Part shown: positions 13,500-64,000 of the stretch, in pieces
How the letters are laid out: each line of letters starts with the position of its first letter
Numbering within the stretch: position 1 is the stretch's first letter
Assembly: GCA_965285935.1 (NCBI GenBank)
Contig: OZ260667.1
Span: forward strand, 22,878,001-22,942,000
DNA from: Ophelia neglecta
Taxonomy: Eukaryota
DNA: 64,000 nucleotides
Direction of reading: 5' to 3'
Notes under the pieces: generated by a model
Databases searched by the model: none
What the model was told of the DNA's origin: nothing
Seen by the model: the letters and a program-made list of their open reading frames with translations, nothing else
Made by a program: the position numbers and the translations under genes

Positions 13500-13657
13500 T
13501 AAGGCCTGTTTCCTTATCATTTAAGTGATTCAGCTAAAATAATGTCTAATGTCGATATGTCGGTGTGCGTGTAGTTGTGGGAGGGGTCAAGTAGAGGCCT
13601 TTTGGGTTCGAAATAAAATTTCGGAGCCATAACCTATATGAATTTTTACTATAGGCC
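13500..13657 (+). repeat. Left target-site duplication (158 bp; partner 14497-14654)
   Basis: Colinear at offset 997, with 6 substitutions counted by eye and no indels. Confidence 0.9.
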
Positions 13658-14496: not shown

Positions 14497-15033
14497 TAAG
14501 GCCTGTTTCCTTATCATTTAAGTGATTCAGCTAAAATAATGTCTATTGCCGATATGTTGGTGTGCGTGTAACTGTGGGAGGGGTCAAGGAGAGGCCTTTT
14601 GGGTTCGAAATAAAATTTCGGAGCCATAACCTATATGAATTTTTACTATAGGCCATATTAACATAAGCTATCTATCTTAACTGAATCATAGAAAATAGAC
14701 ATGTACGCGGCGCCTACTGTATCCAGAGCACGCGATCTATTATAGGCCCAATGATGCTGAACAAAAGCCAACAGCTTTAAGGGCGGGAACAATGCGCCTC
14801 TTTTACAAGTTTTCCGGGGGAGAAAAGGCAGAAAACCGAGGCCCTCCTATAGGTCCAAAAGGGGAGAAAATCAAAACACCGACCCTGGGGCTAAACCTAG
14901 ACCCTCTTATCAATTCCATGAAGGAAAATCCATGATCCCCCCATCCCTTAAACGTACCTCCTGGCCATACTGGTTACTTTTGACGGGGACTTAATATCAC
15001 AGGCAATAACTTCGGGGGGGGGGGGGGGGGGGG

Positions 15034-29592: not shown

Positions 29593-31695
29593 CATTAAGC
29601 ACCCTCCAACCCATTTCGCCCTGAGTTGCCTATTTGCCGAGATGTCGACACTGAGGACTAGTTAGGTGGGCGCTTAAGGCTGATAACCATCAACATTTCG
29701 GGTTAGTAGTAAGGCAAGTTAGATTATCTTGAGAAGATATAATTGCGAATCCAGTTTGATGTCAGGCCTATTTGTCGAGTACATTAATATATGTACTTTG
29801 CCACTAGTTTTAAGTATTTACAATTGGACTAATGGGGTGAGGTTTACCGTTGAGGTGTCTCAAAAATGGAGGATTGCTAACGTTGCACCTGCATTCATTA
29901 GGGAGCCCAGCACCTAGCGGAAAAGTACCATGCAGATTAGAGGGAAAACTTCTAGTTCTTAAAATATCTCCCAAAAAGAAAGAGGATTTGAAACCATGTG
30001 TTCACTTTATACTAAAATTATAAAATTACCAAAAATCATCAAATTCTCCGGAAATTATTAAAATGGTTAATCAATTATGAAGAAACGGGTAGGGGCCTAG
30101 TGTTTGATAGAAGCTATCGTTTGTATTATTTCTGCCAGTGAAGTGGGTAAAATGTGTCAAGATCACCAAATCAACTTTATTCATAGACAGATATATAAAA
30201 TGTAACATCAATAGACCTAGAATGCAGACAATATCAAAGCCAGAAAATAGGTATAGCGTTCTTGGGCTCAAAAAGGTAACGTATGACATTTGACCTTGAA
30301 ACTGATTCTTGTTTTTTTTTCGCCTGGGATAATTGAGATTGATTATTTACTAGAGTTTGTGTTCTCGATTGCCTTAATAATGTGTAAATAGTAATGTACT
30401 GCCTATTATTATATATAGACTATAAATGTACAAACATAAATAACAGAGCAGCTATCTATGGAAGCTTTAAAAAATCCTGTCCCCAAAGAAAGAGAATGTT
30501 TTGCATCGGAGTAACAGTTTGTCTCTCGTAGGGTCCGTACAGAGGTCATATGAGAGTAGACATGCCGATGGTAAGGCCTAAAATTATGAGTTAAATAGAG
30601 TTATCGTGCATTGCTATTTGGGCAGGAAAAAAACTAAAATCATTCCTGTGTTCCTTATATAAACATGAACGCCTATAGTGAAAAAATGCCTCACATGTAA
30701 ACCTACCACGTTTACATTTTTATAATTCGGTTAATCTATTTCATACGTCAAAGTGAGACCATTTGGTAAAGGGTAACTACGTCTATGACAAAACACGTAG
30801 TTATTGACGTGGATCTTTATTGTGATTACTATATGTAAATCAAACCACGTTTATGGTAGGCGACTCATCGGCGTCTTCATGCCTATCACCGATGAAGTGC
30901 AGTTCAGCCGTCCATACATGTATGATATTTACAGGAGAGGCAGGCCAACAAGTGTCACAGTGATTTTATATGATAATTAAGTGGACACATACTGTCTTTC
31001 GAACCAAAATATTACCATAGAAATTGACGCAAATTAAACCGGTAGGCCTATAGAACTACATTAATAAATGCATGCTCTATTATAATACACGTAAGAGGAT
31101 GTTAATAGCATATGCATGAAAAACATAGTAGTAAGTTTAAATTACAAGGCGATCTAATAGAAAGTTTTGTTGCCACGAAAAATGTCAAGGAGGGTGTAGA
31201 TTTAGGATTGTGTGGATTACTTAAACTTGCTTGTGTGGTAAAAACACCTTGTCCTAACAATCAATTGAGCATAAAACCGAAGCACTCACTTATGACTAAA
31301 TAGTTCTCACAATGTAAACAATTCTCGAGTTAATAAAGGGCTTTTACAGCAAATGACGGAACCAGAAAGTTCAAACAGGAAGTTTTCAACCGTCCTTTAC
31401 AAGAAATTGTTACATAAACGACCGCTGTCTTGTTCCTGCGAATACACCGGAAGCTGGTTCTTTCCTGTCTAAAGCACGAAACATTGATTTTCTGAAATAA
31501 TTACAAGTCAAATATCTTCACATAGATTTGTATGAAAGCCACCGTTTGCTCTCTTTGCTATAACAAACTTTTTTTCTTTTACAAAGCCATGTCAGTGATA
31601 TAACTTCCAACATTAATGGGATGCAAATTGATACAACATCAACAATCTTTATCCTGTTACAGATTGGAGTCACAGCCAACCGGGAATAAACCGAG

Positions 31696-34600
31696 ATGGC
31701 ACACGTCAACCCCACATTCGAACCCGACACTGTAAGTACAGTTTTCATTAAGTTCCAAAGTTCCATGTCACTATAATTTGAAAACGTTGAGTAAGGTTAC
31801 TCCACAGTGTATATATTTACGTTGTCACTGCCACATGTGAACGCGTTCACGAGTAAAATGGAAATGTACGAAATTTGTGCAGTGAAGGATCCAGCTGAAG
31901 ATTTGAAGGTAACTGAGAAATGCAAATAATATATTTTTCATTGTATTGGTATTCGGCCAAAGCAATATGACTTGTGTTTGTTAAGTTAAGCTAACATTCA
32001 TCCGAAGTCTAAAAGAGGATGCAATATTACATTGTTACCATGCTGTATAGTAATGCAATGATATCATTGAATTTTAGCAAAAGTTTCTCAAATTATAGTA
32101 GTTATATGCACCTCTAAAAACTTAAGGCAAAATGCGTCTGTCATTGGCAATCGTTGGACCAGTCACCCGGGATAACCACACAATGACATGGTGTTTTAGA
32201 CAGCCGGTTATAGGGTTTAAGGAAGTTGAAAAAACAGGGTCTTATTTGATAAACTTTATAATTTTATGTTATATGGTATGGCATGTTTGTAATCCCGCCT
32301 TAACCAGGACGGTTTCCATTTGTTAACATTGTGAAGTCGGTGTAAAGTGACGGAGAACATGATAGAAGAATCGTTTTTGAATACGCAAGCGGCCTGTCGA
32401 GGACCATATATTTGTAAAGGATAATGTCACGAAAACTTAACACTCCTCAAAAGTGACAAAACAACCGGAATAAGAAAGGATTTATGGCGAACTAAATCCT
32501 CAATTTAATGGCGCACGGTTTAAAAAAAAATGTTGATCATTTATTCTTTCATGTGTGATAAACACTTTTGAACTTATGCAAACAAGCTAGGGATTTAAAG
32601 TAAGGGGGTGGGAGTGGAAAAGAGTACATGAAGTATAGTTAATTGACAACTTTGTCACTGTTACTCGTCTGATGGCAGATTATTTCACCAGAGGATCCAA
32701 TATCTCCGATGACATGACTGATCCCTTGGAAAGTCGGGTGCTAACACCAGGGCGCGCTCAAGGGGGCTTTGTAACGTTGTTAATTTATAAGTAAAATAAA
32801 ATGAAAACGCAGGAGAATCGTTCAGTGTATGAACTTCTATGTTGACCATCCTGTAATGAGGGGACATCTATCTTATCCTTTTTTATTTGCGATTTCCTAA
32901 CCTGATCACAGACAACAATTTACCCTGTAAGATCCCTCGATATAATTATCTAACGTACGATCACTGGGAGCAGGGTAGAAATTTTCCTTATGTCCCTTTA
33001 ATATCAAAATTGATTAAATTATGTGGAATAACTCAAATACGCACAGTCATGTGTTATATTGAGTTGCTCTCTTTTTTGCAGCAATGTTAAGGAAGGATCT
33101 AAAAAGTAATGCTAATATGCTTAAGCAATCATAACATATTCCGTCAAAGAATTCGACCTACCCCTTAACACTGTTACTTATGAATTCAGTATTACACGTA
33201 CATCCTCCCTAGGCCGACATGTGATAACTACATATGTTTGCCAAATGTGTGTACACGTGTAAATGATTGAAAATGGTAATTAATTCAGCCACTTACAACC
33301 CACAGTATAACAAATGAATTATTTCCTAGCTTACGTGTGATTACATGCATCTGCACGCGGATGTCAACTCAATAATATCTTGGTTGGTTAATTTCTATCC
33401 ACTTTATGGACATTGGCCTACATGTGTATATTCGCATCATTGTGCATTTAACGAAAGAACTAATGTCGGAGATCATTTTCACAGGTACTTGTCTCCAATT
33501 AATGATATACGATGGGTAACCCATCCCCCTCCCCAATACCACTATTTATATAGTATTTAGTACTAAAACAAAAACGTTCTAGCAACCTTTTTTTGGCAAG
33601 ACCACAAACTGAAAGGACATGTTTTTTGATATTTCGTGCATATCCAAAGTCGGTGTTTATGATGTCATGTTTTTCGGATATCTTCCGTCAAGACACTTAA
33701 GGAAAGATATAATGTGCTGCCCGCACCCACCCTACCCCTCTACCCTCGTTCGGCATGGGATGTATTATACACCCAACACCCAACACCATACCCTATAAGG
33801 GCAACCTGACTTTATATGTTCCCGATGTTTATGTAAGATTGCCAAATGAACGGTATTTACATAATATTATGTTTGCATGATTTGCTATACGACACTGCCT
33901 TAAGGGTGGTGCCATCCCGTTAATTGTCAAATGCAAGCACTGCAGCATTTCTGTTTTTATCTAGAGGTTATAGGGCGGCTTTATTGCTGTTACTCAGAAG
34001 AGATAAAAGAGGTGCAGCTGAGTCTTCTGTCCTACTCCCGAGTAGCAAAAAATCCCAGTGACATCCTTATAGACCCCACCAATGTCGAGTATATGGTATA
34101 TTACTGAGATACTTGTGAGTGTAGTGAGGGCGAGTAGGAGCAAGGTTAACCCGGTCGTTGTCTAGGAAAAGAAATATCACCATCTCCGATATGTTTCCCG
34201 AGGATTTAAACTCTTGTTTAATTACTGTTTCACCCTAAAACTTTGAGGTTTATAAAGTGATATCGACCTGATACATTTACTCTAGATTGAAAAAAAGACA
34301 AATAATAACGATAAGCAGCGACAATAAACCCATACATATGTATATCCTTTTGACAAGCCTCTCCAACTTTTATACATTGTACAATTTACGCCTCAGAAAT
34401 GCAAAATGAACTGATATATAATCACGTATTAAAAGCATCTTTATCCCCGAAATTAAATTAATGTCTGACTCTGAAATCCGGAAGATATATTGAAACTTTG
34501 AAAGCTCTGTCCACCCAGTCGTATTATCACATTGAAAGACGGGAACAAATTATGGCACCCCAAATTTTCGTCTTTGGAGTTAAAAATTCCGACCCGAATT

Positions 34601-37600
34601 ATAAAGGTTTGTAAACCTAACATGATTATATTCATTGTGACACACCCCTCTACATGTGATCCACCCCTCCACAGACACTGTGACCCACCCCTTCACAGAC
34701 ACTGTGACCCACCCCTCCACAGACACTGTGACACAGCCCTCCACAGACACTGTGACCCACCCCTCCATAGACACTTTGACCAACCCCTCCACAGACACTG
34801 TGACCCACCCCTCCACAGACACTGTGACACACCCCTCCACAGACACTGTGACCCACCCCTCCACAGACACTGTGACACACCCCTCCACAGACACTGTTAC
34901 CCATCCCTCCATCGACACTGTGCCCCACGGCAGCTCACGCACGAGCCGAATAAGAAGGCGAGTGCGCTACACATTCCCGAGGATGATTAATGCAAAACGG
35001 TGTAAAACCATTTCCCCGCTTTTTAAATCATCAAAAAGAAGGTTTTAAAGAAAATAAAAACCAGTCCATTCGATCTTTAAAACATTTAGACCGCAAGAAA
35101 TCAGGACTACACATGGCCTGTAAATTAATATCGCCATTATTTTTTTTCTAACATCTAAGCATAAGTAAATAGTACCAATGCAAGTGCTCTCTATATTGGC
35201 TGTTTCGAATAGACCTTCCATCTACGACTTAGGAACCTTAGGAACCTGTGTGTGGGAGGGGTGGGAAGGTCATGTGTATGAACAATTAGCAGGCGGCATA
35301 TATTCTTTTAAATGTGAATATCAAAACGAGCTTACACAAATAATATTTCTGCCAAAAGAATGACCTTCACATTTCATCGTTGTCAAAGCAAAAACCTGAT
35401 AAACTGGTTTTTTTTTTTTTTTTTTGCATATTATTCTTATATGCTTTTATTTATATAATTTGGTATATTTTAACAGAGTCATTCTGAGTTTTTCGAAAGT
35501 TACTTCGATCCACTACTTAACATTAAATTTTATTTTGCCTCGAATTTAAAGACACCGTACAAAAGCTACTACTTATAAGTGAGCCTCGTTTCCTCGGTGA
35601 AGAGGGGTCCAGTTTTTTTGTGTAGTATTGTGTAGTTACTACGAAAATGATTCTATGCTAGAACACCAACAAATCGTGATAGGTGGCCTCAGTACAGATA
35701 ATTCAATACTTTTCAAGACAAATAATGTTTTGCTTATACATGCTGGCATGTTCAGGTACCGTTCTAATGCGTTGCTTTGACTGTACAAAACAAATCTCAT
35801 GACATTAAATAACATTGATAAGTACTTATAAACTCATCAACTTGAATCTGATATACCGATAGTGTCATTTTTAAACTTCATCTATTGGGAACTTTTTCTA
35901 TATCCTGTGTTGGTAAATTTTATAATTTTCTTCAAAGTTATATGGATGAATTGTTATATTTACTGTGGCGGTGGATTGTATACGCTCTGTGATCCAAAAT
36001 TTGACCAGACAGTGTGAACGCCACCTGTCGACACTTGGGTATCGACCTTGAACATTTCAACCTTAGATCACATTAAGTTTACCAGCTTACTAATTAATTG
36101 GGGAAATGTAAATAATGAGTCTCCGGTGACAACCATCAAATATTTAACTAACAGTGCTATGCAATTAACTGTGTTAAATTGGTGCGAATGGATTTCCTTT
36201 ACCGTAGTTAGCAAGCTACTTTTCTTCAAATTAAAAGATCTTGTAAACATTTACATATAACACAGCTTAAAAATACTTAGAAGTGCTGCTGATCTGGATG
36301 TGAGTTGGCACCCTGACGCATTTAACTCTAAAAAAAGTGGTGTTAGTTAGAACGCAGAAATAATACTGTTATTGCCATATACGCTGTTGGTTCTCCATCT
36401 CCCCTACACATAATACAAACGGTAGTTAGGAGATGGCCATTTATTGAATGGAAAGTAGTTAAAACACGTACACAATGACAAAAAGGTCCGTTTAGCACAA
36501 AGCCATTCTAATGTCAATACGTGTCTCAAAATTATGTACATGTGTATAATTATAACCTACACTAGTGACTATACTGGTGTTTAACAACAATCGCCAGAGT
36601 TAATATCTCACAAGAACTCGCTTGTTGACAGTTTTATAGGCCTGCCCTCACACTGTGGTTTCGTCTTGCTAATAAGCATTTGAACATATACCGGGTACTA
36701 CCACGGCATTTTTCTGCACCTAAATTGACTGCTATCCAAAAGATATAAGATATACATTACATATGGCCCAGGCGAAGGCAGCAGGCAAGCTATTACATGT
36801 AGGGTCTCAACAATCACTTTATAATGTGCTAGCGAAAGCACTCAAAACATTTCTCAAATTACAATATTTGCGGTTAGTAAATTATCTGGATATGTAAATA
36901 AATAAACATTTTAAACGGTTAGAAATGTTCAATACAGTTCGAGATCCTTATTTGAAAGTTATTGAAACTCATGTCTTCGAATAAATTTACTGTAAAACAT
37001 ACGCTATAACACAATGTTAGACAGCCGATCTCTCAATTCTAGATAAGCAAACGTCATAGACAATATTGTATTGGGGACACATTGGCAAGTCTCATTCGAA
37101 CCCCTTGAATGATCCGTAACATGAACATTTGGTATATGGTCAACACAAATAAAGGTCGAAAGGACCAAGAAAAGTATAGCAAAATTATCTCTGTCAAGTT
37201 TACGGTGCAAGACATATTTGACTAAGCATAATGCCCTCTGCCATGTGGATTACAGCGGAAATATAAAATATTTCGTTTGGTCACCCGCAAATGGATTTCG
37301 TTCAGTTTTACCACCAATGCATTTTATTAATTCAAAACTAAAGCCGGACAATAGTACTAATGGCTCATCATGAAACTGTGGTACTGCTGAACAGGGTTAG
37401 CACGTTTATATGTGTCCCTACAACGATCTATTGAATGTTTTAGAAAGGTTAGCCATTACCAGAGTGTTGTCGCATGTGAACCGCCATGTTCTTTTTTTAT
37501 AGGTTGAGAATGGTGTTGCCGTACAAACTATTGCAGAAGGTAAAGACGGTGACAATAACTCGTCAACTGAAGAAGACGGGAAGGAGACAAAGGAGGGCTT

Positions 37601-40600: not shown

Positions 40601-43600
40601 TTGTTTCAGATCCAAGGAGCGATAATAGGGGCCTCTTTCTTCGAGGTTCTTATAGGGGCGACGGGTCTGGTGGGCCTCTGTCTGCGGTTCATCACTCCAC
40701 TCTCCATCGCTCCCACCATCGCCCTTGTGGGGATGTCTCTCTTCGGGGCCGCTGCTAACTTTGCCTCTAGACAATGGTGGATCGCCTTAATGTACGTGTA
40801 AACAACCAATTTAAATAGCCAATTGTGCATTCGGCACAAATTTGAACGTTACATTTGCAACATGTTAAAATGTTGCAAAATATTATATAAAAGGCCTATT
40901 GCATATTTAGGCTAGCCTAGCCAATATGTCATTATTAAATTCATGTAACTTACTTATCATAGGTACTATCCCCCCCCCAAAAAAAAAACCCAAAGAAAAA
41001 CAATATTCCAGATTAAAATAAAAAGCTGTTCGTCACTCGATCGTGCACGTGTTTGTCTTGTTGTGGACGCCCATTGCAAGCGTTTACATTGAAAAAAGAA
41101 GGAGGTCACATCTGAAACCGTTTACTACTCAGCAAACACGTGCAGCCCTATCTGTTTTTGTCATACAGTACGGGAACCATGTATGTTAAGAATAACCACA
41201 AACTAAAGTTCAGCTACAGCTTTAACAGCTGCCTTTTAATGTCATAACTTGCGCATTACTATTTTCAGGACAATCGTGTTGATCATCATATTCTCCCAAT
41301 ACATGAGAAACATTCAAATTCCTATCTGCTCCTGCAACAAAGGCTGTAAAGACCTGCGCTGCAGCGGCAAGCTGCCTCTCTTTAAAATGTTCCCGGTAAG
41401 AGTAAAGTCTGTGCTGCCTATTAAATTATAATTTATCAGATATTTAAACCAATAAATATGAAGGAAATTGTGTTTATCTTCGGTTTTGTCTATGCATATT
41501 CATTCGGCAAAGGTGGTATGATTATATTGATGGCCATATCAACGTATAACCCGCCTCTGATTTAACTTTTCACTGACAATATTGTGTAGGATAATGCACG
41601 GTTATTCAAAGATATACAGGGTAAAATGGAGAGTGACGTTTAAAGAAATAGACAAAGCTTGTATGGTGCAGACCGATAGACCGGCTGCCCCCTTAAGTTA
41701 GGGATGTGCTTAAAGGGTAACAATTAAATATATCTACTTTGCACCGGGTAAGAAGAGTTACCAGTGTTCACAGGGATAATTTCATGGTGTAGATTTTTAG
41801 ATCTTTACAACCATGCAGTATATTCTACAATCACTATATCCCTCTCCAAATTGTTCTGCTATGATAGTCTCAATTAATCATCTCAATAAATTTTTTCACA
41901 AAGCTTCAGGATTTCATCTCCGAGGTTTATTTCCAGGCGAAAATTCGTTTATTCATGCACATATAAAAATAGTTTCATTATTTAAAAAGCTTTTAAATTT
42001 GGTAAAATATGTAATGCGTCGGCCGGGAGTCGAACCCGGATCGATTGCTTGGAAGGCAACCATGCTAACCGCTACACCACCGACGCTGGTTGAATGATAT
42101 CGACAAAGATTAACTGGCAATGTCCAAAGATCAATAGGCTATACAGGCCTTTTACTCAGGTAACGTTACCGCTGATTTCTGCTGATTTGTGTACCTATAT
42201 GCGCGGAGAGTTCATCACATTTATAATATCTTGTAGATGACAAAATGGGCAGGGGTGGGGGTGGAGGGGCTAGAAGCTAGATCATTGGGTATGATATTTG
42301 GAGAAAAAGTTGGTATATCAGGTTCAGGCAGCCTCTCTCCACACCACTTTAGTTGTTTATGGGCATATAGGACCTTAGTAAGAGAGTTTTCAGTTTGTTA
42401 TTAAAAAGCGACACGTGTTATTTTTAGTGCATTTTTCATAGCAGCCATTTTACTTGTAGGCCTGGGCCTAAAGGCAGGTTAACTCTTCAAACGTGCTAAC
42501 TAGGGTAGGTTATAATCAATGATTTGTATTAAAAAGTTTAAAGAAAAAAAATATTTTCTGTTTTTCAGATCATAATGGGAGTAGTGTTATCCTGGTTGAT
42601 CTGTGCTATTTTGACTGCGGCAAATGTTCTCCCAAATGACAGTAAAGAGTGGGGTTACTACGCCCGGACGGACACCAAGATAGAGGTGCTCTACAAGGCG
42701 AAGTGGTTCCGATTCCCCTACCCTGGTGAGTTCCTTGTCTTCAATGACGAAAATGATGTCAGTTCGGTTGATTGGTTTTCAAGAATGAAGTTTAACAAAA
42801 GTTTTTGGCGCATTCAGGATTAATCGCATTAACCTTGTGTAGACCCAGTTACTATAGTCGTGTTAATAGCTTAAGAAAACAAAGTTACTATCATAGTCTA
42901 GTCTGTTTAGGGTCTCTAATAAATTGATTTATAAAATCACTTTATTGACTGTGACAAATAAATGAAAAGGTTTACCAGGTCACGAGAACAGTAAACCATA
43001 TATGAGCATGGCAGAGGAGCAAGGACGGTTTGCTGTTTACATGGATGCAGCATCCCCCCCCCCCCGCCCCCGCCAAGAAAAAAAAACCCAAAAAAACATA
43101 TACAATAGCCTACACACAAACGTCCGGACGCCGAACATGCCCTCTCAGCAATTAACTCTTTTTGTCTGGATCTGTATGAGCGTATCGTGTGAGCGTGCGC
43201 ATATGCTTATATATTTAACAAGTGTAGGAATTAACAAGTGTAGGAATTAAAATAATTTGAAACCAAAGATTATTGTCACTAATGAACCACTTGCAGCGAC
43301 ATAGTTCTACTTTAAAATGTTTACTAAAAATGGCTCTAGGCATCTATAACAGCCCCACACATGTAGAGAACAATCATAGGCCTAATTCATTCCTTTTATA
43401 TAACAACCCATTTTTTCCTTATTTAGCGCAATGGGGATTGCCTACCTTCAGTGTAGCCGGAGTTTTTGGGATGCTTGCGGGAACTATTGCCGGGATGATG
43501 GAGTCAATAGGAGACTACTACGCATGCGCTAGACTCGCTGGGGCTCCCCCTCCTCCAGTTCACGCCGTCAACAGAGGTAAGACATAGGATTAGGGAAATT

Positions 43601-45415
43601 TGTCAACTGATGTATGGGCTCATAAAAATTGACTCTACAGGCATGTGTTTGAACCACTCAGTTTCTGTTTCCCAATCTGTCATTGCCGGTATGGTACGTT
43701 TTTGATGTTCCTATTTTCTCGGTTATAGGTGTTTTCGTCGAGGGACTCGGTTGCATTTTCTCGGGACTATGGGGCACCGGAAGTGGAACTACATCATACA
43801 GTGAAAATATCGGAGCCATTGGTCTTACTAAAGTATGGTTCAAGACTAACTATTTACCCTAAATACCACATTGCTATTCTTAGGCAATATAACTATTATA
43901 GTATAAGTATCTTCCTTCGTATTATAACTTGTGTTGTTTATTATTAAATAATAAATCACATAAATATTGTATTAATTAGGATTGAACCAATACAATTTTC
44001 TTGGTTATTCTCTTTGTATTTGAGATCTATCTTCACAAATAACGAGATGTCGTGTTTCGTTCCAGGTAGCCAGTCGACGTGTTATACAAGTGGGGGGAGT
44101 TGTTTTTATTTTCTTCGGACTTTTTGCAAAGTTCGGAGCGCTGTTTGTATCACTGCCAGATCCTATCGTTGGAGGGGTTTTTATGGTCATGTTCGGTTAG
44201 TAGATGGCAAATGAATTCCACATTCAGCCGCTGTTTTAATTTGACTTAACAATTTATAGTAGTATCTATGGAAAAAGAATCGTTGAAACCTTTCCAGTAA
44301 CAGTTACAGCTTCTTTTTATTAGAATTGCTTGTTAAAGTCAGACACAATTCTTTACCTGTATGATCTGAGAACAGAACTACACAAGCAGTTGATGCCTTT
44401 ATATGTCACTACAATACAGGCCTTGTCTACAGCTCTGCATTCGCCAGCTTCTTTAGTTTTTTTTTATAAGCGTTAAACATTTTGTTTACAGGTATGATTG
44501 CTGCCGTTGGAATCTCAAATTTGCAGTTCGTAGATATGAACTCTTCGCGTAATCTTTTTATTTTTGGATTTTCCTTGTTTTTTGGACTCTCAATGCCTAA
44601 TTGGATGTCAAACAACACGTCTACCATTAAAACCGGAAACAGTGTGGTCGACCAAATATTTACTGTACTACTCAGTACCAGTATGTTCGTCGGCGGCGTA
44701 GTAGCTATTATTTTGGACAATACGGTACCTGGTAAGTTTTCCTGCATGAGTTGAACCAAAAGGAACGTCTTCTTATTTAGTTCACAGAACTTCTTATGTA
44801 TGATGAATAAGTCTATGACTTTGCGGTATGACTGGTGTCTGGAAACTTCTCTATGAACTTGTTAATTCGAGTAATTATTACTCGCTGTCTGAGTGGTCGA
44901 AATTGCGTGAGAACATCATTAGATATGCCTAATAATATGTACATTCTATTATAGTATATTTTATTATTAAATGATCTTCTATTTGTCTCACATTTTAACG
45001 TAAAATGTAATATGGTAAACATCTGGCACATGTCGCGTTAATGGCTAAGAGCTTTGTTTTTCTTCTTTTAGGGACTGATGAGGAGAGAGGAGTTGTCCAG
45101 TGGCGGGCAATGATCAACGGCAATGCATCTTTGGAAGACGCGGAAGGTGTTCGGACATACGACTTCCCGTTCGGAATGAATGCCATTCGAAAGGCCAACT
45201 GGTTGCGTTTTATCCCACTCTGTCCTACATACAAAGGATGGGGCTATAAGAAAAGAGCAAACAGTGTCAAAGACGAACCGGAAGTTATAGTCAAAGCGCC
45301 ATCTTCGAATGGGGAAAATGTCCACCATCGGAAATCCGGTGACCGCCAGTCACCTCCTCCAAAATACGACGCAGTGTCAAGCGAGAATAGAAACGCCGGT
45401 TCTACGGATATGTAA
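31696..45415 (+). CDS. SLC23/NCS2 (nucleobase-ascorbate transporter) family member, 13 coding exons, 656 aa
   Basis: Exons 31696-31731, 37503-37670, 38035-38192, 38439-38530, 39842-39924, 40610-40791, 41269-41395, 42569-42725, 43427-43576, 43729-43832, 44066-44195, 44492-44731, 45072-45415. All introns are GT-AG and phase-compatible; total 1971 nt. Motifs: PPW...[64 protein letters not shown]. The first exon ([12 protein letters not shown]) is less certain than the rest. Confidence 0.95.
34636..34928 (+). repeat. 24-bp minisatellite, ~12 copies, intronic
   Basis: Unit TGTGACCCACCCCTCCACAGACAC. Confidence 0.97.
42015..42086 (-). tRNA. tRNA-Gly-TCC: tRNA-Gly (anticodon TCC), intronic and antisense to the SLC23 gene
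   Basis: GCGTCGG TG GTGT AGCGGTTA GCAT G GTTGC CTTCCAA GCAAT CGAT CCGGG TTCGACT CCCGG CCGACGC A forms a complete 72-nt cloverleaf with A and B boxes. A T4 run lies ~8 nt downstream. Confidence 0.96.
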
Positions 45416-48632: not shown

Positions 48633-49778
48633 TTATGAATGAAAGGTCCAAACATGTGGGAGGCCGCATAGTTCAAACCCCATGCGTGCTGCCATTTTTG
48701 CCAGACCCTCAGTTTCAATGTGGTTTTCGAAAACAAATGGAGGAAAAATAAGTCCTTTTCGGTGGCAATTAGCTCTCACAAGTAAAACACACCCTCCAAC
48801 ACCATCGATTTTTACAACATTTCCTTCTTTATGGATAGCAGGCAAGTATATTCGTTTGCTTTCATCGTATCCTTCAAGCATTAAGAATTCTCTGTTCACC
48901 TTGCTCAGGAACTCCTTAGAGCGATTGGTTTCACGCCACGTGTTCCTGTCGTAAACCAGCGAAACCCCGGTCCCAGCAGTGTACATGCAAGACGGAGCAA
49001 CGATGTCCTTTTCTGCTGAGAGGAGATGTTGAATTAAATCAGGGGGGACGTATTTCACATCACTGTCTATCCACAACACCCAGTCTTCATCAGTGATCCC
49101 GCGAGCCATTAACTGATTACGCGCAAGCGCCAAATGACCCCTGCGCACGCGCTGGAATCCCGGATCGTGCCGTGTAAACGCTGGGCGCTGGCGTAAGCCC
49201 TCCGCCGACCGGAAGACGCTGATTTTCCTGAAATGGTGTTCTAGTTTATCAGCATGCACTTTAGCTATCGAAAACGTCTTGTCCGTGCTCGTGTCCTCGC
49301 CTAACGCTATAGAAATCAGCTCGTGGGGATAGCTAAGGCTACAGAGTAAGTGAAAATAATGTGCTAAGTGGGATGCTGCATTTGACACGGGAGTTAATAT
49401 CACAATTTTCGAAGTAAAATTCTGTTTGAACGCCTCAGAATAATTTGACTTTTGAGACAACTGCAGAAACTTCTCATAGTCACGGTCCTCCGTTTTATTC
49501 ATTATGTATCCTGAGGGGCATTTTGGAGAAATGGTCGCAAGTTTCGGCACTTGGCAACCAGCCCTCGTCAGCTGATAAACCGATTCAGAATTAATGTCTA
49601 GTTGCGTTGTTCCTACGTTTGACACAACTCGGATGTAGTTGGTTCTGTGATGAATAAGTAGGTAAAGAATCATACAAAATGTTCCTATGTTAAACACAAC
49701 GAACATATTTTTCCATGTCGGAGTCATTTCCGGTGCGTTACCTCTGACTGCAACCGCACACGATGTTTTAGCAAGCAT
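48633..49778 (-). CDS. Anp1/Mnn9/Van1-like (GT62, GT-A fold) glycosyltransferase, type II membrane protein, single coding exon, 381 aa
   Basis: Intact ORF with an N-terminal TM anchor (MFVVFNIGTFCMILYLLI). Family motifs: IVILTP, LSYPHELISI, QRVRRGHLALARNQL, WVLWIDSDV (DxD), IDGVGGCVLLVRA..HR.G..FP, IETEGLAKMA..MG. A polypyrimidine/AG acceptor lies 24 nt upstream of the ATG (exon starts at 49802). Candidate 5'-UTR donors are at 51329 and 51910. Confidence 0.9.
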   Translation of the reverse strand: MLAKTSCAVAVRGNAPEMTPTWKNMFVVFNIGTFCMILYLLIHHRTNYIRVVSNVGTTQLDINSESVYQLTRAGCQVPKLATISPKCPSGYIMNKTEDRDYEKFLQLSQKSNYSEAFKQNFTSKIVILTPVSNAASHLAHYFHLLCSLSYPHELISIALGEDTSTDKTFSIAKVHADKLEHHFRKISVFRSAEGLRQRPAFTRHDPGFQRVRRGHLALARNQLMARGITDEDWVLWIDSDVKYVPPDLIQHLLSAEKDIVAPSCMYTAGTGVSLVYDRNTWRETNRSKEFLSKVNREFLMLEGYDESKRIYLPAIHKEGNVVKIDGVGGCVLLVRANCHRKGLIFPPFVFENHIETEGLAKMAARMGFELCGLPHVWTFHS

Positions 49779-52652: not shown

Positions 52653-54095
52653 TGCTAGGTTAGTTCCACTCGGAACTTTCCCACAATACATGCTAGGTAA
52701 GTTCCACTCGGAACTGTCCCACAATACATGCTAGGTTAGTTCCACTCGCAACTGGTTCACAGTACATGATAGGTCAGTTCCACTCGGAACTGTTTCACAA
52801 CAGATGATAGGTCAGTTCCACTCAGAACTGTTTCACAATACATGATAGGTTTGTTCCACTTGGAACTGTCCCACAATACATGCTAGGTTAGTTCCACTCG
52901 GAACTGTCCCACAATACATGCTAGGTTAGTTCCACTCGGAACTGTCCCACAATACATGCTAGGTTAAGTTCCACTTAGAACTGTTTCACAATACATGCTA
53001 GGTTAGTTCCACTCGGAACTATGCTAGGTTTGTTCCACTCGGAACTGTTCAACAATACATGCTAGGTTGGTTCCACTCGGAACTGTCCCACAATACATGC
53101 TAGGTTTGTTCCACTCGGAACTGTCCAACAATACATGCTAGGTTAGTTCCACTCGGAACTATGCTAGGTTTGTTCCACTCGGAACTGTTCAAAAATACAT
53201 GCTAGGTTAGTTCCACTCGGAACTGCCCCACAATACATGCTAGGTTTGTTCCACTCGGAACTATGCTAGGTTTGTTCCACTCGGAACTGTTCAACAATAC
53301 ATGCTAGGTTAGTTCCACTCGGACCGGCCCCCAATACATGCTAGGTTTGTTCCACTCGGAACTGTCCAACAATACATGCTAGGTTAGTTCCACTCGGAAC
53401 TATGCTAGCTTTGTTCCACTCGGAACTGTCCAACAATACATGCTAGGTTAGTTCCACTCGGAACTATGCTAGCTTTGTTCCACTCGGAACTGTTCAACAA
53501 TACATGCTAGGTTAGTTCCACTCGGAACTGTCCCACAATACATGCTAGGTTAAGTTCCACTTAGAACTGTTTCACAATACCACAGGTGCTAGTGTCAATG
53601 TCAATGCTACCCACTGTGTATAAGAGCGAAGCGCTTCGCTCTTATACACAGTGGGTAGCATTGACATTGACACTAGCACCTGTGCACAATACATGCTAGG
53701 TTAGTTCCACTCGGAACTATGCTAGGTTTGTCCCACTCGGAACTGTTCAACAATACATGCTAGGTTAGTTCCACTCGGAACTGTCCCACAATACATGCTA
53801 GGTTTGTTCCACTCGGAACTGTCAAACAATACATGCTAGGTTAGTTCCACTCGGAACTATGCTAGGTTAGTTCCACTCGGAACTGTCCAACAATACATGC
53901 TAGGTTAGTTCCACTCGGAACTGTCCCACAATACATGCTAGGTTAGTTCCACTCGGAACTGTCCCACAATACATGCTAGGTTACTTCCACTCGGAACTGT
54001 CCCACAATACATGCTAGGTTAGTTCTACTCGGAACTGTCCACTCGGAACCGTCCCACAATACATGCTAGGTTAGTTCCACTCGGAACTGCCCCAC
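52653..54095 (+). repeat. Minisatellite of ~38 units (38-bp long form and 26-bp short form), each with an internal hairpin
   Basis: Consensus CATGCTAGGTTAGTTCCACTCGGAACTGTCCCACAATA. The short form lacks GTCCCACAATAC. AGTTCC-actc-GGAACT is an inverted repeat. Confidence 0.97.
53581..53684. mobile_element. Perfect 104-bp palindromic MITE with 8-bp TSD (P-element-like or hAT-like)
   Basis: 52-bp arms with no spacer and no mismatches; termini CACAG...CTGTG; CACAATAC duplicated at 53573-53580 and 53685-53692. Confidence 0.9.
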
Positions 54096-54175
54096 GAGTT
54101 TTATGCATCAACGATACCAAGGGAACCACACGACGGTATCCCCAGGGAACCACACAACCGTATCCCGAACACATA

Positions 54176-54320
54176 CAGTGAAACCTGTGAAATAAGACCA
54201 CCCGACTTACTAGATAAATGTGAACGAAGAGGTTAAATCGTGTAGGGATTTACTATTGAATCTATAGTCGGTCCAAATTTTTCGTGTGGTCTTAGGACAG
54301 AGGTGGCCGTTAAGGCAGGT
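54176..54320. mobile_element. Partial Tc1/mariner-type MITE related to 17714-17886
   Basis: TA-CAGTGAAACCTG left end (same TIR as the right end of the 17.7-kb MITE). Internal TAAGACCAC / GTGGTCTTA inverted repeat. Right end is degenerate. Confidence 0.55.
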
Positions 54321-54942: not shown

Positions 54943-55289
54943 CCCGGGGGTACTCACTAATTGGAGGTAGGTAGGTAGGCTCCGCTGGAATGACCCCCCT
55001 TTTTTCAGGTCACATAGAATTTTGATACCTACTTTTTGCATGCAACATAGAATTTTGACCCCCTGTTTTCACTCAACATAGAACTTAGCCCCTCATTTTT
55101 AATGATACAACAATTTTGACCCCTATTTCATTTGAAAAACAAAGATTTTTGACCGCTGTTTTTCCGAAAAACAAAGAATTTAGACCCCCATTTTTACGAC
55201 AGACATAGAATTTAGAACCCCCATTTTGAACCTTCCGGGGAGCCTACCTACCCACTTTGGGCCCGAGTAACCCCCCCCCCCCCCCCGGG
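54943..55289. mobile_element. MITE with CCCGGGGG termini and internal ~31-bp tandem subrepeats
   Basis: CCCGGGGGTACTC...GGTAGGTAGGCTCC pairs with GGAGCCTACCTACC...GAGTAA(C)nGGG. About 7 copies of a CATAGAATTTTGACCCC-like unit lie inside. TSD not clear. Confidence 0.8.
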
Positions 55290-56907
55290 ATTCAGTCCAA
55301 CAGGTGGTGAAAAGGTTAGAGATCGTGCGAACATACAGGGCTAAAGGCTAACTGATAAACGACATTTTAGAACAATAGCAATGAAACTCACTGTAGCAGT
55401 CACCGTGTTCGCTGACCCGTAGTGTCCTTTGTAGCGGTAGCGAGTCGGGTAAACCGAGCCAAAGTAAACGTGACTTGTTGATTCAGCGAACAGGCAGTGA
55501 AAGGGCGCTAGTAACTAGACAGAGGGAGACGGTACGCTAATTGGCCGTTGGAGGTCACGTGCCCTGTGATACGCGAGACCTACGATATCAGCCCGCATAA
55601 GGAACATAATGCCAATAATATCACAATAAAAGCTTTAAACAAATAAAATATTTAACAACTCATTAATTAACATACGTCAAAGAGAATTACCGTAATCATA
55701 CGAGTAGCTGCATACCGTAACAGTACTTCAATGGCAGATTTTTGAAACGTTCGATGTAGTTAAATGAGCTCTTCACCTTGTTGTTCACCGCTTTTTACGT
55801 CAAGAGTGCACGGGTAGATTGAGTTGAATATATTCTTGACTAAAGGAACAAAGTTACGTCTCGGTTGATAGGCTATTTACATTTTGCGTCAAGCAGCAAT
55901 CATTTTCTGTGTATAAAGTCATCGGTTCCCATGTATGAGCAAATTTTAATGATTTGTTAATAGGAAAACGTTAGTATTCAGATGAACACTCATACCCTTA
56001 AATACTGTAATATTTCAATAGGGCAGGTGAATTATGTTTCATTTGTTGAATACTATCATCTATATATAAACTCTATATACACCTATTTTATGCAATCACA
56101 GCCATATACTTTGTATATCGTTTGTATAAAAGTCTTATTTTATGTGCGCTTAGAAGATTTTAATTGGAAAAACTAGCAGCAAATGAAAGCATATGCACAA
56201 CGAAACCGATAGCATCATATATAACAAGTGATCTTGAAGGCTTATGGGAATAAGGGCCAGTATGTCTGTAATGCTCGTGAAAATTTTGTAAGTTGCCATG
56301 GCGACGTTCATCTAATTACAAAACTGATTAGCACATATGTAATAATTATTTTATGGTAAAGATACTGCACAAACACACGCGGAGGTGAGATATTTCTATA
56401 AATGAGTGCGCAGATCTGCACCCCTAACAACACAGCTTTAATCCATTTATTTTGTTTGCAAATACGATTTTGTAATAAATATTGCGTCCGCGAGTTCAAC
56501 ACCTGGTTGAACGAACTAAGCAGGAAAGCAATGATTTTAAACGACTGCCTAATTTTACCTTCTACACAGCGGTCCGCAACAATATTCATATAAACTTAAA
56601 CCTTTAAAAAAAAATTAAAATCGGAATTTATATTCGAGTGCCTGTGCATTAGGCCGACAAATAAAACATCTATTCCTGCTCAATTTGTAGGCTAGTATAG
56701 GCGTTTAGATAGAGAGTTATATAAATTCGGTTTATAATGATGATAACAACAATAACGACAACAACGGTTATGACGATGATAATATAATAATAATTATTAT
56801 TACCATACTAATAATGATATTGATAATGCAATCGCTATCTTGTACACATAGGGTCCATCATATTTATAACGTATGAAGCAATGACATGCGCTTTTTAATG
56901 TAATGTA

Positions 56908-59900
56908 TTACAAGTGTGAAATCTCTAAGGAATTCTGGTCAACTAATGAATTGGTGGTGGATGATTTTGTTGTTGTGCAAGGCCTGCAAAATATAACGTA
57001 AAAACGACTTGTAATGTGTCAACAATACTTTAAGTACGGCCTAATCTCTCGACCCGTTTCCACAGAGATAAAAAGTCCGAACCAATACATGTGCCAAAGT
57101 GATGTATGTTTGTTTTTATAATTCGGTTCGACGTTATTATTTAAAGCAGGTATACCTTCCAAATGCCTCCGCTTCTTCGACGGTATCGGTGAGCGAACAG
57201 CCTCTAGTTTCGGGCAGGAAGTATGTCAGGGCTCCAGCTATAGTGCCCGATGCCCCAAATATCGTTGCTTGCATTGGGAGCCATATTCCTGTCTATCAAA
57301 ACGAGATCTTTATAACTTCATTTTTGCCAAATTTAATGCAAATTAACTACACGGTGCAAACTTTTTTTGAGACTAAGCAGGTTTAATATTTAATTTTAAA
57401 AATTCATAAAATAAAATTATAACAGATAAAAGTAATGGTTGTGAAACAAAGACCAAATTGCACCTGTGCAGTAAACAAAGTACAGTCGAATGTATGGGCA
57501 ATCATCGGACTGAGCATATTAACCCTTAACTTGCAGATGCCCTCAATTTCAAAACTGCCTTTTTTATTAAATCATTTGCCAATTGACAGTTTATCTTTAG
57601 TACACATAACAAATAAGAGTATGCCCTACTGTTAGGTATTATTGTAAGTGCAATCATTGGTTTTACATATAACACCTTAGTTCCAAAAAGTTGCAATCAG
57701 AAAATCTTTATATGCCCATTTGGTTAAGTTTGTGGGTGGTAGTTTATTATCTTCTTCTTCACATGCATCATTCACTCTTAGCAGCCTCAAAATCAACTCC
57801 TTATTGCCTTTAATTCGGAAAGTTTTAGCGGAGTCAAGGGGCCAAAATCTTGCCCTTAATTCTTGATTCAGAGGTGCCCTTTATACATTGCTATCTCTTA
57901 TTAATCCCATGAAAATCTGACGGGACTGAACAAAAGCGCCCTTAATTCAAAGATACCCTAATTCACAGATACGCACAGGGACAGATTCGACCGTATGTCC
58001 TACATTACTACATTCCTAGCGATATCTATGCAGCGTGTAATTGCATTACCAGAAAGATTATTCAGGTTTGGTATGACTGGAGGGAGTAAGAGTCAAAGGG
58101 GACGGATGTGTCATCAAAATTACGAGTAAATCGTCTCTTGACATTTTGTCATATTTGAATAAGTTCTTAACTCACCAATGGCGCTCCCATATAAGGCGCT
58201 GCCATGCCACCGACTCGAGCTACCATCGAGCAGACCCCGAATCCGGTGTTTCTCACCTCCGTCGGAAATATCTCTCCCGAGTAGACAGTCAAACCAGAGA
58301 AACTGATGGTGACAAAGCCTCTCCCAATAAGTGACACCGTCGTATGTGCTGTGCCGAAATCATATAGCAACAAGGGAATTGTGATAAAGCAAGACATTCC
58401 AGAAGCGACGAGGGCAATGCCGGAAGTAAGTCTTCGTCCAAGAAATCTCCAGTCGAAGCAGAATATGACAAGAATGTGGGCGGGAATTTCTATTAAACCG
58501 GAAAGAAACAAGTTGAGGTACACATCCCCGGACAAGGCAGCCGTGTTCAGTGTGAGCGAATAGTACACCAAACTATTCACGAACCTAATGAATAGAAAGA
58601 ACTGATATTCGATACAATGCTCCAGCGTGTATACCTTGATAACAAATCGATATAAAAGCCTGGTTTAGAAGGAATGGACTATTCCCATTGACATAGCTAG
58701 GGGCCACTATACAATATTTACGGAGAAGGTAAAATAAATATATATGTTACCATTTTTTGTCTTCAATTTTTGTTAGATGACATTTTTGGCAGTTGATTAA
58801 TTTACTTCGCCTTTGAAACATAAAAGAGGTGGACTGGGGGACAGGGCACCTATCATTTAAATCATACCCAACGTGGTTCTGGCAAAACGCGATATTATCT
58901 TAAATCCCTAAACGATTAGTCGCAAACAGCCAAGCGGTTATGTACGCTATGGGTCGATTGTACGCCGGTCATTTTATAATCCATCGCCAAAGCGGCAATT
59001 AGAGAAAAACTATTCTCGGATTGCTTTTTCGCGTCATCAATTTGATGCCGCCACACCGATATTCGCTTCATATCTGATGGGCAGATAGGATTTTTACCTC
59101 AGGAAGGTTTATCATGAAGGGTAAACAATTTTTTTCCATTCGAAAAATGTAAATGTGTCTTCATGAAACTAGACTGATTGGTAGTCGGATCATTATGAGA
59201 ATGGTCAATAATGACAAATGATAAAGACCAATATTATTCTAAAAGTAAATGATAAATTTGTCTTCTTATTTATTGTATGCAATAAGTACCAGTAGTATTG
59301 CACTAATTAATAATAACTCATTCTAATCTACACTACGATCTAATAACCCATTGTAAACCACGATAACCAACGATAACCCACAATAAATCACGACAAGCTG
59401 CGATTATCACGCTAAATCACGATAAACCAAAATAACCTGCGATAGACCACGATAAACCACAATAACTCACAATAAACCACGAGAACCCACGATAACCCAC
59501 ACTGATAATATTGGCCTTCAAAAACTTAGTCAAAATGACTAACTTAGATTAGTCACGAGAAAATGACTAACCTAACTTAGTCAGAAAAGGACAATGTTAG
59601 TCAAATGGCTAATGTTCCTTAGTCAGGAGTTATTCCACCTCGTACATTCAGCCTTGAACTTGACACACAACTAACGTATCTATAGAACCCCCCCCCCCCC
59701 CGCTCAAGGGGTCTACTATACACATAGGCTTGTTCCAGAATGTCAGAATGACCCCCTAAAGGAAGGAAACCGGCTTGGTTTTCAACCTCTTTTTTCACGG
59801 GCTTTTTTACTGACTTGACCCGCCTAAAAGAAAGGTTTGGCTGTAATCCACCCCCTAAAAGAACATTATATTTCTCGGGGACGGGTTATAATATACCACT

Positions 59901-62900
59901 TTTTCTTATTTCTCGGGGTTAGTTTGAAATTACCCCTTTTAATTTTTTTTCGCGGAGAAAGTAGGAAAGGACCCCTTAAGGTCATTCTTTTCAGTCCCTT
60001 CTCCTTTCAATGTATAGGCCTATAATATTGTATATATATGAATATATATCTTGTAGGTAAAATCATATTGATTTACTTGTCATGTAGTCTGGAGCGCCTG
60101 TGTATTTTAGCATGAAACTTATATTTATTTATGATGTTCTCTGCAACTGAAATCGCAATATACTACTCACAAATGCGTTCACACGCGTTCACCTTCTCGG
60201 GCATCTTTGCTACTTTCGCCAACACACCGGAAGGCAGAAAGCGCGACCTCCATGTGCTCCAAGGACGAAGCGGGTCGGACATCACAAGTTCAATTTACTG
60301 GCAAGTGGTTACATCAAAGTTTTTTTATCTTCAATTTATATGAGCCCGTTTGAAAGTAGGACTATAGATCCTGTTTTTCCATCAGAGCTTTTATTGAAAT
60401 CAGCCTCTCTCGACAGACCACTTGCATGGAGAGACGATCATATGGGTTGTCTTAGCTAGGCAGTCTCACTATAATTTTTTAACACTTGTATTTTGATGTA
60501 TGTACTTGTATAAAGCATGGTACTTTTTTAATTTCAGAGACCCGGCTTGTATATAAAAACTGATATACCCGTATCCAGGTTCTCCGAAGAAGACATCTTC
60601 AGGCTGTCCTGCTCCTATTGTATGCCACCTGCATCTTCAACCTGTTGTACAATGATAAGTGAGGCGCACTTGTATAATAGTAGACTATTTTTTATATGAA
60701 ATTATATTTGTATGAATCCCTCTTTGGTATCAGGGAATAGGCAATTCTCACTGTTGAGCAGGTTCTATGTCACGTAGGGCTGTTCCATTGAACAAGTGTA
60801 AGGCATTATTTTTAATGTTAGTAAATAAAAGTTAGAACAGAACAATGTTTCGTTATGATCCCCTAAAATACAGATTTATCCCTTTGGGTAACTTAGGTTA
60901 GTCATTTGACTAACTTTTGTTAGTCATTTGACTAACTTTTGACTAACATGACTAACACGGGTTAGGACATTGGCACTTAGCCACAAAGACTAAGGTAAGT
61001 TAGTCATTTTGACTAAGTTACTTAGTCAATATATTTTCAGTGCACGATTACTCACAATAAAACACGATAACTCACAATAACCTACGATAACCTGCGATAC
61101 CTTGCAATAACTTACATTAATCACAAAAAAATGTGGTGATGGAAAACTGCATGTCAGTTCAGAAAACAGCACCAGAAGCACGTTTAAGGATTTGTTAATC
61201 AAATTCTGTTACATATACATGTATTATTGGCCATGATTTTTTTTTAACCATTGGCAAATTGGACTTATACATGGTGCATTTAAGTCCGTCGCTTGCGTTC
61301 CGTTACTGGTGCAAGGACCGCTCGAGCTGTTGCAAATTTCTATCCTATCGGTGGTTTTTCGATAATTTCAGGTCCCCCTTCCGGATACTAGATAGCTTTA
61401 GGCGAAACTAGGACAAAACCACCCCTTGGTCCCCAAATGCTGCCAAGGTACACAACTCTACTCGGATGCCCGGCAATGTCTTCAATGGGTGGAGGGGTTA
61501 TGGGAACGGAGTGACTGCAGAAAAGCACTTTGTGTGCTTATTTGCCAGATGAAATATAGTCCACCTAGTCACTGTGTCCCTCAAAAGGTATACATGGAGA
61601 GAAACCATCTAATTTCTAACATGAGGAAAAAGGTTTCAGTTTAAACCATCTGTTTCATTGTTAATGATACGTCAGTTTGTATAAAAAGGATAAAAGTTTA
61701 AAATGAATATTATCATTTTGATATCATAAAAGTAAGGTTAGTTCAGACATATATATTGAAACTAGATCCCTTCCATAGCTTGGAGCTAATCTAGGTAGGT
61801 CCAGAGCATGTGTCGATTCGAATCGAGATGGTCTGGCATTTTAAAAGAAACCCTTAAACACCAGACAGCCATGTGCTTCCCTGACTAAAAGTCGTGTAGG
61901 CATGTTACCAATGAAGGCAGAGGACTAAAGTCCAAACTCTAAGGCGCTTCGTCTTCACCAGGGCTAAACAATTTTGTTGTTTTAATGGTTCGAAGATTTC
62001 GATCTGCAAAAGAAAATTTATCATTTAGTGGGAATTTAGTTTCGAAAAAAAGAAAACAAAATCGTTTTAAATATCCATGTGATAGGAATCACAAAACAAA
62101 GTGCCCACCTTTTCCTTTTCTAGAGCATATAAATCAATATGCTCCGGAAAGTGTTTTCCATTGACCTTTGCAATCTTCTTCAGAACATTGCCTGCCTTTT
62201 TAAACCGACGTCTTTCAAGAAGCCACCGAGGTGACTCGGGCAACAACCTATAAAGAGTACACTTATCAATTCAAGACACCCAACTAATGTTTATTTATTG
62301 TTCTCTTCATTCTAGTTAGTGGATGGTTATAATTATGCAACTATAAATACCAAAAGTCAGCAGATAATCAACAAATTTATACAACACACCAATCCTGACA
62401 AGATGACAAAATAATATGGCCCATTGAATATTAATGCACATAAAACAAACAAAAGATCATTAACATGTGTCGTATATAAATCTATAGGGTTAAAACCGGT
62501 GATTATGAAATATGAAATTGATTCCATTAGTTACAAATATCAATTACTGCGAGGCTTATATTCACCATGTTCAAACTTACCAAACATGTGAAATAAAAAT
62601 AATGTTTGGAAGCAACATGGCCAACTGCAGCATCCGGTCATCTCTGATAGCGTAAGCTAAGCCGGAAACTACCATTATGCCGATCGCAAAGGATATATTG
62701 GACGCAACACCAAGGGATGTCCGATAAGCCGAGCCTACTATTTCCATTACTAACGGCAAGAGAAAGTTAATGAATAATTGACATAATCATGTAATTGTTC
62801 AAAGTGTAGAGAACATGGACGCTACTTCAATGTAGTTAGAGATTCAGGTAGAGTAGCCGGATGGTTCGGAAGGTCGACTCCCAGACGAAAGTTTTACGAT

Positions 62901-63733
62901 CAATCGATAGCTTCCCGGAAGTGACACTGTCTAGTTCTTCGCGTGAAAGTACCTAAACCCCGTAGTGCACCACATCACCCAAGTTAAGTTGGGTCACAGT
63001 TCACAGTTGGATGAACATTAAAATATGAATTGTCCAATTCATAAGAATAAGCTATTTCTGAATTCTGATATATTAAAATAATAAATCCCTAGTCTACTCT
63101 TCCAGGTGGCAGCAAATGAAGGTCATTGAGATATTTACAAAGGAGGCTTGAAATCGAAGATAATGGTCAAGTAAAATGACCAATCCCAAGGGCCAAAAAT
63201 GCTCTAAATCTCAAATTAACCAGCTTACCTATAATGAAACCGGATTGGTAGCAACCGAATGATCCCCATCCCTGGAAAAACTTTCCAATGCAGAACAAAA
63301 TGTAGTCATCAGCGACCAAAACCAGGATACCGGAAAGCAGCTTAATCACTATATTTGTCATTAACCCAACTTTCCTTCCAAATCTATGAATATACACGAA
63401 TTTCAAGAAGTGATATAGAAAACATATCTGCCTTGATGAAGAAGTATCGTATTTGGCTCAGAATTGAAGATAGAAATGAGACATCGAAAAAGGCTGGAAA
63501 GTGCCTTATACCAGACAGAACTAGATCGATGTTGACAAATTATTTTTAATTCATTCATAAGGCACAAATGAACGTCCACGAATCAAATTATAACTGTTAG
63601 TTTAGTTAGTTGTAGCATGCATAACATACTTGTCGGATATAATACCTGTGACAAGGGAACACACGAGTATGCCACCAAATAATAAAGTGGTGGAAAGATC
63701 TCGAAGTCCGCTTTTGTTACAAACTAAATTGTA
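56908..63733 (-). CDS. SLC22 organic cation/anion transporter-like MFS protein, 5'-partial (8 coding exons in window)
   Basis: Exons 63733-63630, 63383-63229, 62749-62581, 62247-62109, 62003-61909, 58584-58176, 57292-57156, 56983-56908. All introns are GT-AG and phase-compatible. Motifs: [58 protein letters not shown]. The protein ends ...LEISHL*. Confidence 0.95.
59330..59499 (+). repeat. 10-bp minisatellite (CACGATAACC-like), left part; resumes at 61043-61125
   Basis: CAC(G/A)ATAA(C/A)C repeated in register on both sides of the CACTG...CAGTG element. Confidence 0.85.
59500..61042. mobile_element. Non-autonomous CACTA/EnSpm (CMC)-like DNA transposon, 1543 bp, in an SLC22 intron
   Basis: Termini CACTGA / TCAGTG; 2-bp TSD CA. 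Perfect 24-bp subterminal inverted repeat at 59523-59546 / 60996-61019. Clusters of TTAGTCA/TGACTAA at both ends. Confidence 0.85.
62851..63000 (+). mobile_element. Decayed tRNA-derived SINE
   Basis: A-box-like GTAGCCGGATGGTT, followed by a core-like AAAGTACCTAAACCCC...CACCCAAGTTAAGTTGGGT; highly degenerate. Confidence 0.4.
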
Positions 63734-64000
63734 CTGTAATGAAAAAATAACAATAAGTGATAAGTGAATCCAAACGTACATTAATTTACGAAAAACATCC
63801 AAAAACCCTAGGAGAGAATAAAGTCCTAATTGTTCCGTGTGAGCAGAGTTCACTAGAGCCCATAATGCAATGTTATACGTACAATGTTTATTGTTGAACT
63901 TGTGAGAGATTAAAAAAAATGAGCCACTGTCATATCCTCATTGCAATTATGAAGTCCATTCTTTCTAATCATTTGTCATTGTACGTGCATATCTATTTAG

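Follow-up and report, generated by a model that had tools for sequence, protein, structure and literature searches.

How a 104-bp stretch of DNA that is its own reverse complement came to lie inside a tandem array, and whether a transposase placed it there, is the question raised by a minisatellite of Ophelia neglecta. We analysed this locus within a window of 64,000 nucleotides (contig OZ260667.1, positions 22,878,001 to 22,942,000), and all coordinates below refer to that window. The palindrome sits inside array unit 25, between direct repeats of the sequence CACAATAC, and the features of the locus are as follows.

52653..54095, plus strand: host minisatellite, 37 segments, mostly of 38 bp and 26 bp
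52958..52996, plus strand: empty paralogous array unit 8, a 39-bp variant
53573..53580, plus strand: left target-site duplication, 8 bp, within array unit 25
53581..53632, plus strand: left arm (terminal inverted repeat, TIR), 52 bp, begins CACAG
53586..53609, plus strand: four tandem hexamers (arm bases 6-29), consensus RTGYYA, mirrored in the other arm
53633..53684, minus strand: right arm, exact reverse complement of the left arm (100% complementary), no spacer
53685..53692, plus strand: right target-site duplication, 8 bp

The inserted palindrome and its empty site

The palindrome at 53581-53684 consists of two 52-bp arms with a 0-nt spacer. The earlier note had described it as perfect, spacer-less and flanked by an 8-bp target-site duplication, and this description is exact: the 104 bp equal their own reverse complement, and 8 bp is the only one of 18 flank lengths (2-19 bp tested) at which the flanking direct repeats are identical. 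Elsewhere in the window, the longest perfect palindrome reaches an arm length of 13 bp in AT-simple sequence, and 100 shuffles of the window by hexamer blocks yielded palindrome arms of at most 11. The element, with a GC content of 48%, is short and non-coding, overlapped by no listed frame of at least 100 aa. Both junctions are clean, without deletion or filler, and the palindrome stops exactly at the borders of the duplication. The duplication and the element begin with the same four bases (background 0.9%), which makes the right junction an 8-bp palindrome; this match may reflect chance, target preference or repair microhomology. Within each arm, the tandem hexamers are candidate repeated subterminal transposase-binding sites, judging from their sequence; their periodicity, which was spotted post hoc, was matched by 1 of 2000 shuffled arms and by 38 of 1500 random 52-mers from the window.

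The array also preserves an unoccupied counterpart of the insertion site. Once the element and one copy of the duplication (112 bp in total) are removed, unit 25 is identical to unit 8 at 39 of 39 positions, and since 4 or more edits separate unit 8 from every other unit in the comparison (34 in all), this pairing is specific. The empty site claimed earlier at about 52958-52994 is thereby borne out, with an end two bases short. The two units belong to a block duplicated within the array, units 7-15 corresponding to units 24-32, in which 7 of 319 positions differ (2.2%, 95% interval 0.9-4.5%); the comparison is confined to these units, as the lengths or sequences of those outside no longer match. 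That the insertion followed the block duplication, as had been proposed, is the simplest order of events, but a precise deletion from one copy is also possible, since a hairpin between 8-bp direct repeats could have been lost precisely from unit 8 by slippage. Perfect arms between exact 8-bp duplicates, together with the empty paralogous unit, agree with the reading of the palindrome as a non-autonomous DNA transposon made of TIRs alone. We also asked whether a larger TIR element might enclose the whole array; the best inverted match between the array flanks scored 20, the median of the shuffles being 22, and the idea was rejected.

The arm is foreign to the locus and was not templated from the array or the window. 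The longest word that it shares is 6 with the array and 11 with the remaining window, both at chance and typical of shuffled arms. An inverted repeat of foreign origin whose ends coincide with both borders of an exact short duplication is the footprint of a cut-and-paste transposase.

The age of the insertion can be bounded from the arms and the block. The perfect 52-bp arms limit their divergence to less than 5.6% (95%), and at the block divergence of 2.2% zero mismatches over 52 bp have a probability of 0.32; the insertion is thus probably no older than the duplicated block, and recent without implying present activity. The earlier note had inferred a very young element and an active transposase, which goes too far for arms expected to be perfect 32% of the time at that divergence. 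Such arms may, moreover, correct each other. The same note held that long perfect palindromes are normally unstable. Long, spacer-less, identical arms do increase the risk of breakage, but the surprise was overstated, as the human genome contains about 180,000 near-perfect spacer-less palindromes longer than 40 bp (PMC7999016). Long ones are described there as highly AT-rich, so that at 48% GC the palindrome is less usual, not unprecedented.

Relatives and the candidate transposase

A search of the 64-kb window with the 20-bp end at up to 3 mismatches found no second copy, its 2 matches both being the palindrome itself, and neither a parent nor a sister element was found in the window. Six pairs of CANRG-ended sites with 7-8-bp flanking duplications occur in it, and the ends match in the palindrome only (20/20 against 5-11/20). 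The window holds no transposase-sized frame and no THAP/P-transposase frame; its sole stop-free frame of at least 200 aa is an Anp1-like gene, and a Pfam search of the 13 longer window frames gave no transposase domain and a family of any kind in 2 of 13. Beyond the window, the arm was without match in the phage collection and in E. coli genomes, and gave 26-bp matches at E 0.9 in 3 records of the plasmid collection. GTDB genomes returned 5 exact 18-mer matches against about 17 expected by chance; the inverted arm was present in 0 of the 5, with exact runs of 18-21 and 11-15 of 34 matches past the seed. These collections are prokaryotic and so have no bearing on copies in the host genome. The literature, searched by topic and not by element sequence, yielded no element combining a zero spacer with an 8-bp duplication, and Repbase-type libraries may contain the family; no table of transposon terminal motifs was found in that search.

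The terminal motif of the P superfamily is CANRG and that of hAT is YARNG. The ends of the element, CACAG, are compatible with the former, although five partly degenerate bases carry little weight; they do not match the latter, their third base being C. V(D)J signals are built of heptamer and nonamer motifs; the arms do contain a CACAGTG heptamer, but by eye no nonamer lies at 12 or 23 bp, and a V(D)J-type signal was rejected. A match to a THAP site was likewise dropped because the motif is too degenerate.

P elements produce 8-bp target duplications (PMC1562414, PMC7776569), and so do Zisupton and hAT (PMC12730594), the last in agreement with what had been noted before. A duplication of 8 bp consequently fits P (8- or 7-bp), hAT and Zisupton/KDZ, and is not unique to P. 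The ends of the D. melanogaster P element are asymmetric, with a spacing from TIR to transposase site of 9 versus 21 bp (PMC7776569); those of the palindrome are identical, and unlike ends are not required throughout the superfamily. Compared by eye, the target site is without the end-complementing bases described for P (PMC2577343). The clade of CACTA, Chapaev and Transib shares CA..TG ends but makes 2-5-bp duplications (PMC12730594); flank lengths of 2-5 yield no duplication here, and the clade is excluded because the duplication is 8 bp long. The earlier assignment to the P superfamily therefore survives in part: the 8-bp duplication fits and the CACAG ends would fit, but Zisupton and hAT also generate 8 bp and the window contains no transposase. 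A P-type transposase is, tentatively, the likeliest driver, and an unclassified or Zisupton-type CA-ended family is a quite possible one; hAT appears unlikely, and other superfamilies equally so.

Among known systems, the closest are families of miniature elements (MITEs) whose whole sequence is essentially fold-back, such as the PALTA/PALTTAA families, Cele7, CeleTc2/5 and Mirza of C. elegans and Hairpin of Arabidopsis (PMC3814204). Like these, the palindrome is short, non-coding, essentially all inverted repeat and flanked by a target duplication; unlike them, it is a spacer-less palindrome of 104 bp with an 8-bp duplication, a comparison made by description and not by sequence. Hairpin, for instance, is 238 bp long, its arms measure 114 bp and its target is CTWAR (PMC5172404). 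The zero spacer differs from known fold-back MITEs merely in degree. The P-MITEs of Anopheles gambiae resemble the palindrome in being non-autonomous, in their perfect 8-bp duplication and in retaining the ends, but their TIRs measure 27-32 bp, their 5' and 3' parts differ, their middle is unrelated and their family names indicate lengths of 205-2450 bp (PMC1562414). The palindrome, unlike these, lacks a middle and has identical ends, and no master element was found in the window. Zisupton and Dileera share the 8-bp duplication, and Kyakuja the CA..TG ends, but the two fungal Dileera entries begin with GACC and Kyakuja has 7-bp duplications without TIRs, both unlike the palindrome (PMC12730594); terminal sequences were compared for fungal entries only. 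MER53 and Made1 are likewise short hairpin-forming MITEs, but of the mariner type, with a TA duplication (MER53 being 193 bp long), old and multi-copy (PMC2996404; PMC3814204).

Neighbouring genes and other elements of the window

A neighbouring gene, at 48633-49778 on the minus strand, is a single-coding-exon glycosyltransferase of the Anp1/MNN9 family (381 aa from the ATG, Pfam E 3.7e-53). Its named relatives come first from lophotrochozoans (annelids, molluscs and one nemertean, with identities of about 38-51%) and then from bacteria, a distribution that hints at an old horizontal origin. By eye, a clear splice acceptor ends at 49803, just before the coding exon (minus strand, ATG at 49778), and an upstream exon is therefore likely. 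The region 55391-55560 (minus strand), possibly the first exon of the Anp1-like gene, carries CCAAT and CACGTG motifs and, near 55540-55560, a patch that is CpG-rich and promoter-like; a donor follows downstream at 55391 and would place the array within intron 1. Alternatively, with a full-consensus donor at 51329, the array could fall upstream of the gene; the donor-like sites listed numbered six.

Other genes in the window are a tRNA-Gly(TCC) gene at 42015-42086 (minus strand), nucleobase/ascorbate permease exons at 43261-45415 (plus strand; Pfam Xan_ur_permease) and, by eye and without a Pfam match, SLC22-like transporter exons at about 56900-63750 (minus strand). Adjoining the host minisatellite are a fragment at 54169-54305 with 23-bp imperfect inverted repeats, which we take to recall a Tc1/pogo-type MITE, and a 32-33-bp tandem array at 54991-55227. 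At 59523-61019, another element of about 1.5 kb is fold-back-like as well but unrelated to the palindrome, with 32-bp inverted ends (94%) built of short repeated motifs and flanked by 10-bp tandem repeats. Farther away, an element of about 2.4 kb at 8186-10597 has degenerate inverted ends (about 110 bp, 72-77%) and several tandem arrays inside. Two 158-bp direct repeats with 96% identity at 13500-14654 surround a 191-aa frame without a Pfam match that, by eye, is like the C-terminal zinc-finger end of a retroelement protein, possibly a truncated Penelope-like element or LINE. A perfect 20-bp AT-rich inverted repeat at 30014-35929, with its copies 5.9 kb apart, encloses a 24-bp tandem array at 34655-34928 and no long frame, and may be due to chance. 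Positions 1-1538 and 11027-12564 are identical over 1538 bp (100%) at a distance of 11,026 bp, the left copy being clipped by the window start; the pair is either a very recent segmental duplication or an assembly duplicate.

Competing origins of the palindrome

We consider it highly probable that the palindrome is one copy of a non-autonomous fold-back MITE composed entirely of terminal inverted repeat. A DDE transposase encoded elsewhere in the genome would have bound both identical ends, possibly via the four subterminal hexamers, and excised the element from a donor site; reinsertion would have taken place at an 8-bp staggered cut in the minisatellite, with the duplication arising from gap filling. 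Less securely, the family may have been born once from a longer element, either by template switching during gap repair, whereby one end was replaced by a copy of the other, or by deletion of the interior between self-complementary microhomologies of the TIRs. With end copying or with such a deletion, a single step could be enough to leave a palindrome without a spacer. For the birth of MITEs, microhomology joining during gap repair has been described, as has template switching in one family with 54-bp TIRs (PMC3814204). Against this reading, besides the lack of a transposase-sized frame in the window and the differences from P ends and targets given above, stand the single copy seen within the 64-kb window and the identity of the four starting bases, possibly a repair microhomology.

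The single copy and the four shared bases would be accommodated by a one-off repair event, in which a hairpin or fold-back fragment of other genomic origin was caught at a staggered break of the array by microhomology-mediated end joining, without a transposase or a family. The shared four bases and the 8-bp palindrome at the right junction are what such joining could leave, the window is without a second copy, and the array, which has rearranged, is full of small hairpins, most of its units containing one internally. This origin is nevertheless very unlikely, as the junctions are clean and coincide exactly with the duplication borders, the arm has no local template, and the CA..TG ends and hexamer repeats resemble those of transposons. 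An artefact of sequencing or assembly, be it a fold-back read or an adapter remnant, is less probable still. A perfect palindrome placed within a tandem array invites that suspicion, as does the 1538-bp identical duplicate elsewhere in the window, and a 12-base stretch of the arm (53615-53626) is similar to the central part of the Tn5 mosaic end. In a fold-back read, however, the flanking DNA would be inverted, whereas here all 37 of 37 units keep one orientation (26 plus to the left of the insert, 11 plus to the right, 0 minus); this constancy and the foreign arm, matched by nothing nearby, make a fold-back read unlikely, and an exact 8-bp duplication exists. The Tn5 likeness was set aside as coincidence, since the likeness to the adapter does not extend beyond the 12-mer and the duplication length does not fit, and the arm gave 0 matches in E. 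coli genomes, 0 in phages and only the 3 chance-level 26-bp matches in plasmids. A third origin keeps the transposon and moves the birth of the palindrome to this site: a longer or asymmetric element inserted, generating the duplication, and was later reduced in place to a perfect palindrome, either through deletion or because one end was copied, so that the 104-bp form never moved. One copy is known, inverted ends do arise by gap repair with template switching (Goblin; PMC3814204), and symmetric ends would be accounted for if the transposase needs unlike ones. We regard this as unlikely, though less so than the foregoing alternatives, because one more event would have to fit into the brief interval that the block duplication allows (7/319 differences), and fold-back MITE families are already documented. 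Our estimate for it is not additive to that for the preferred reading, as both share a transposon origin.

Finally, the perfection of the arms might have been kept by selection on a functional small-RNA gene, a precursor of miRNA or hairpin siRNA. The predicted RNA fold of the palindrome is a 50-bp stem closed by a 4-nt loop (-97.4 kcal/mol), with z-scores of -20.8 (RNA) and -20.4 (DNA) and equally stable shuffles in 0 of 200 in each case; the stem is retained in sequence context on both strands, and a transcript of either strand would form it. Made1 has been linked to miRNA genes. A possible location in a 5' intron of the Anp1-like gene would suit such a role, and miRNAs have arisen from palindromic MITEs (MER53; PMC2996404). 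Against this, no Rfam family reached its gathering score over the element, and five matches to miRNA models (34.8-59.6 bits against thresholds of 70-100) stayed below threshold and reflect pairing alone. The insertion is recent and lies inside a minisatellite, and perfect arms require no selection. A typical animal pre-miRNA does not resemble a 50-bp perfect stem with a 4-nt loop. We therefore judge a small-RNA gene highly improbable, and the palindrome copy most likely has no host function.

The transposon insertion is real, and the element is most probably a member of an already documented kind; as a single copy, it leaves the general picture unchanged. The filled and empty units of one array nonetheless form an internal before-and-after record of the event. 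It is improbable, if less so than a repair insertion, that the 104-bp form represents a currently mobile, high-copy family with spacer-less identical 52-bp ends and a P-like or unclassified CA-ended transposase. The persistence length of DNA is roughly 150 bp, and 104 bp falls below it. Should such a mobile family exist, it would be a natural minimal substrate, its enzyme needing neither unlike ends nor looping room and perhaps pairing the ends through a cruciform, and its intronic copies would seed perfect 50-bp dsRNA hairpins genome-wide. If the palindrome does belong to a family, it would cleanly mark a transposase that makes an 8-bp cut and was at work recently in the host animal, and its very small size and full symmetry would suit it as a substrate for studying the requirements of transposon ends.
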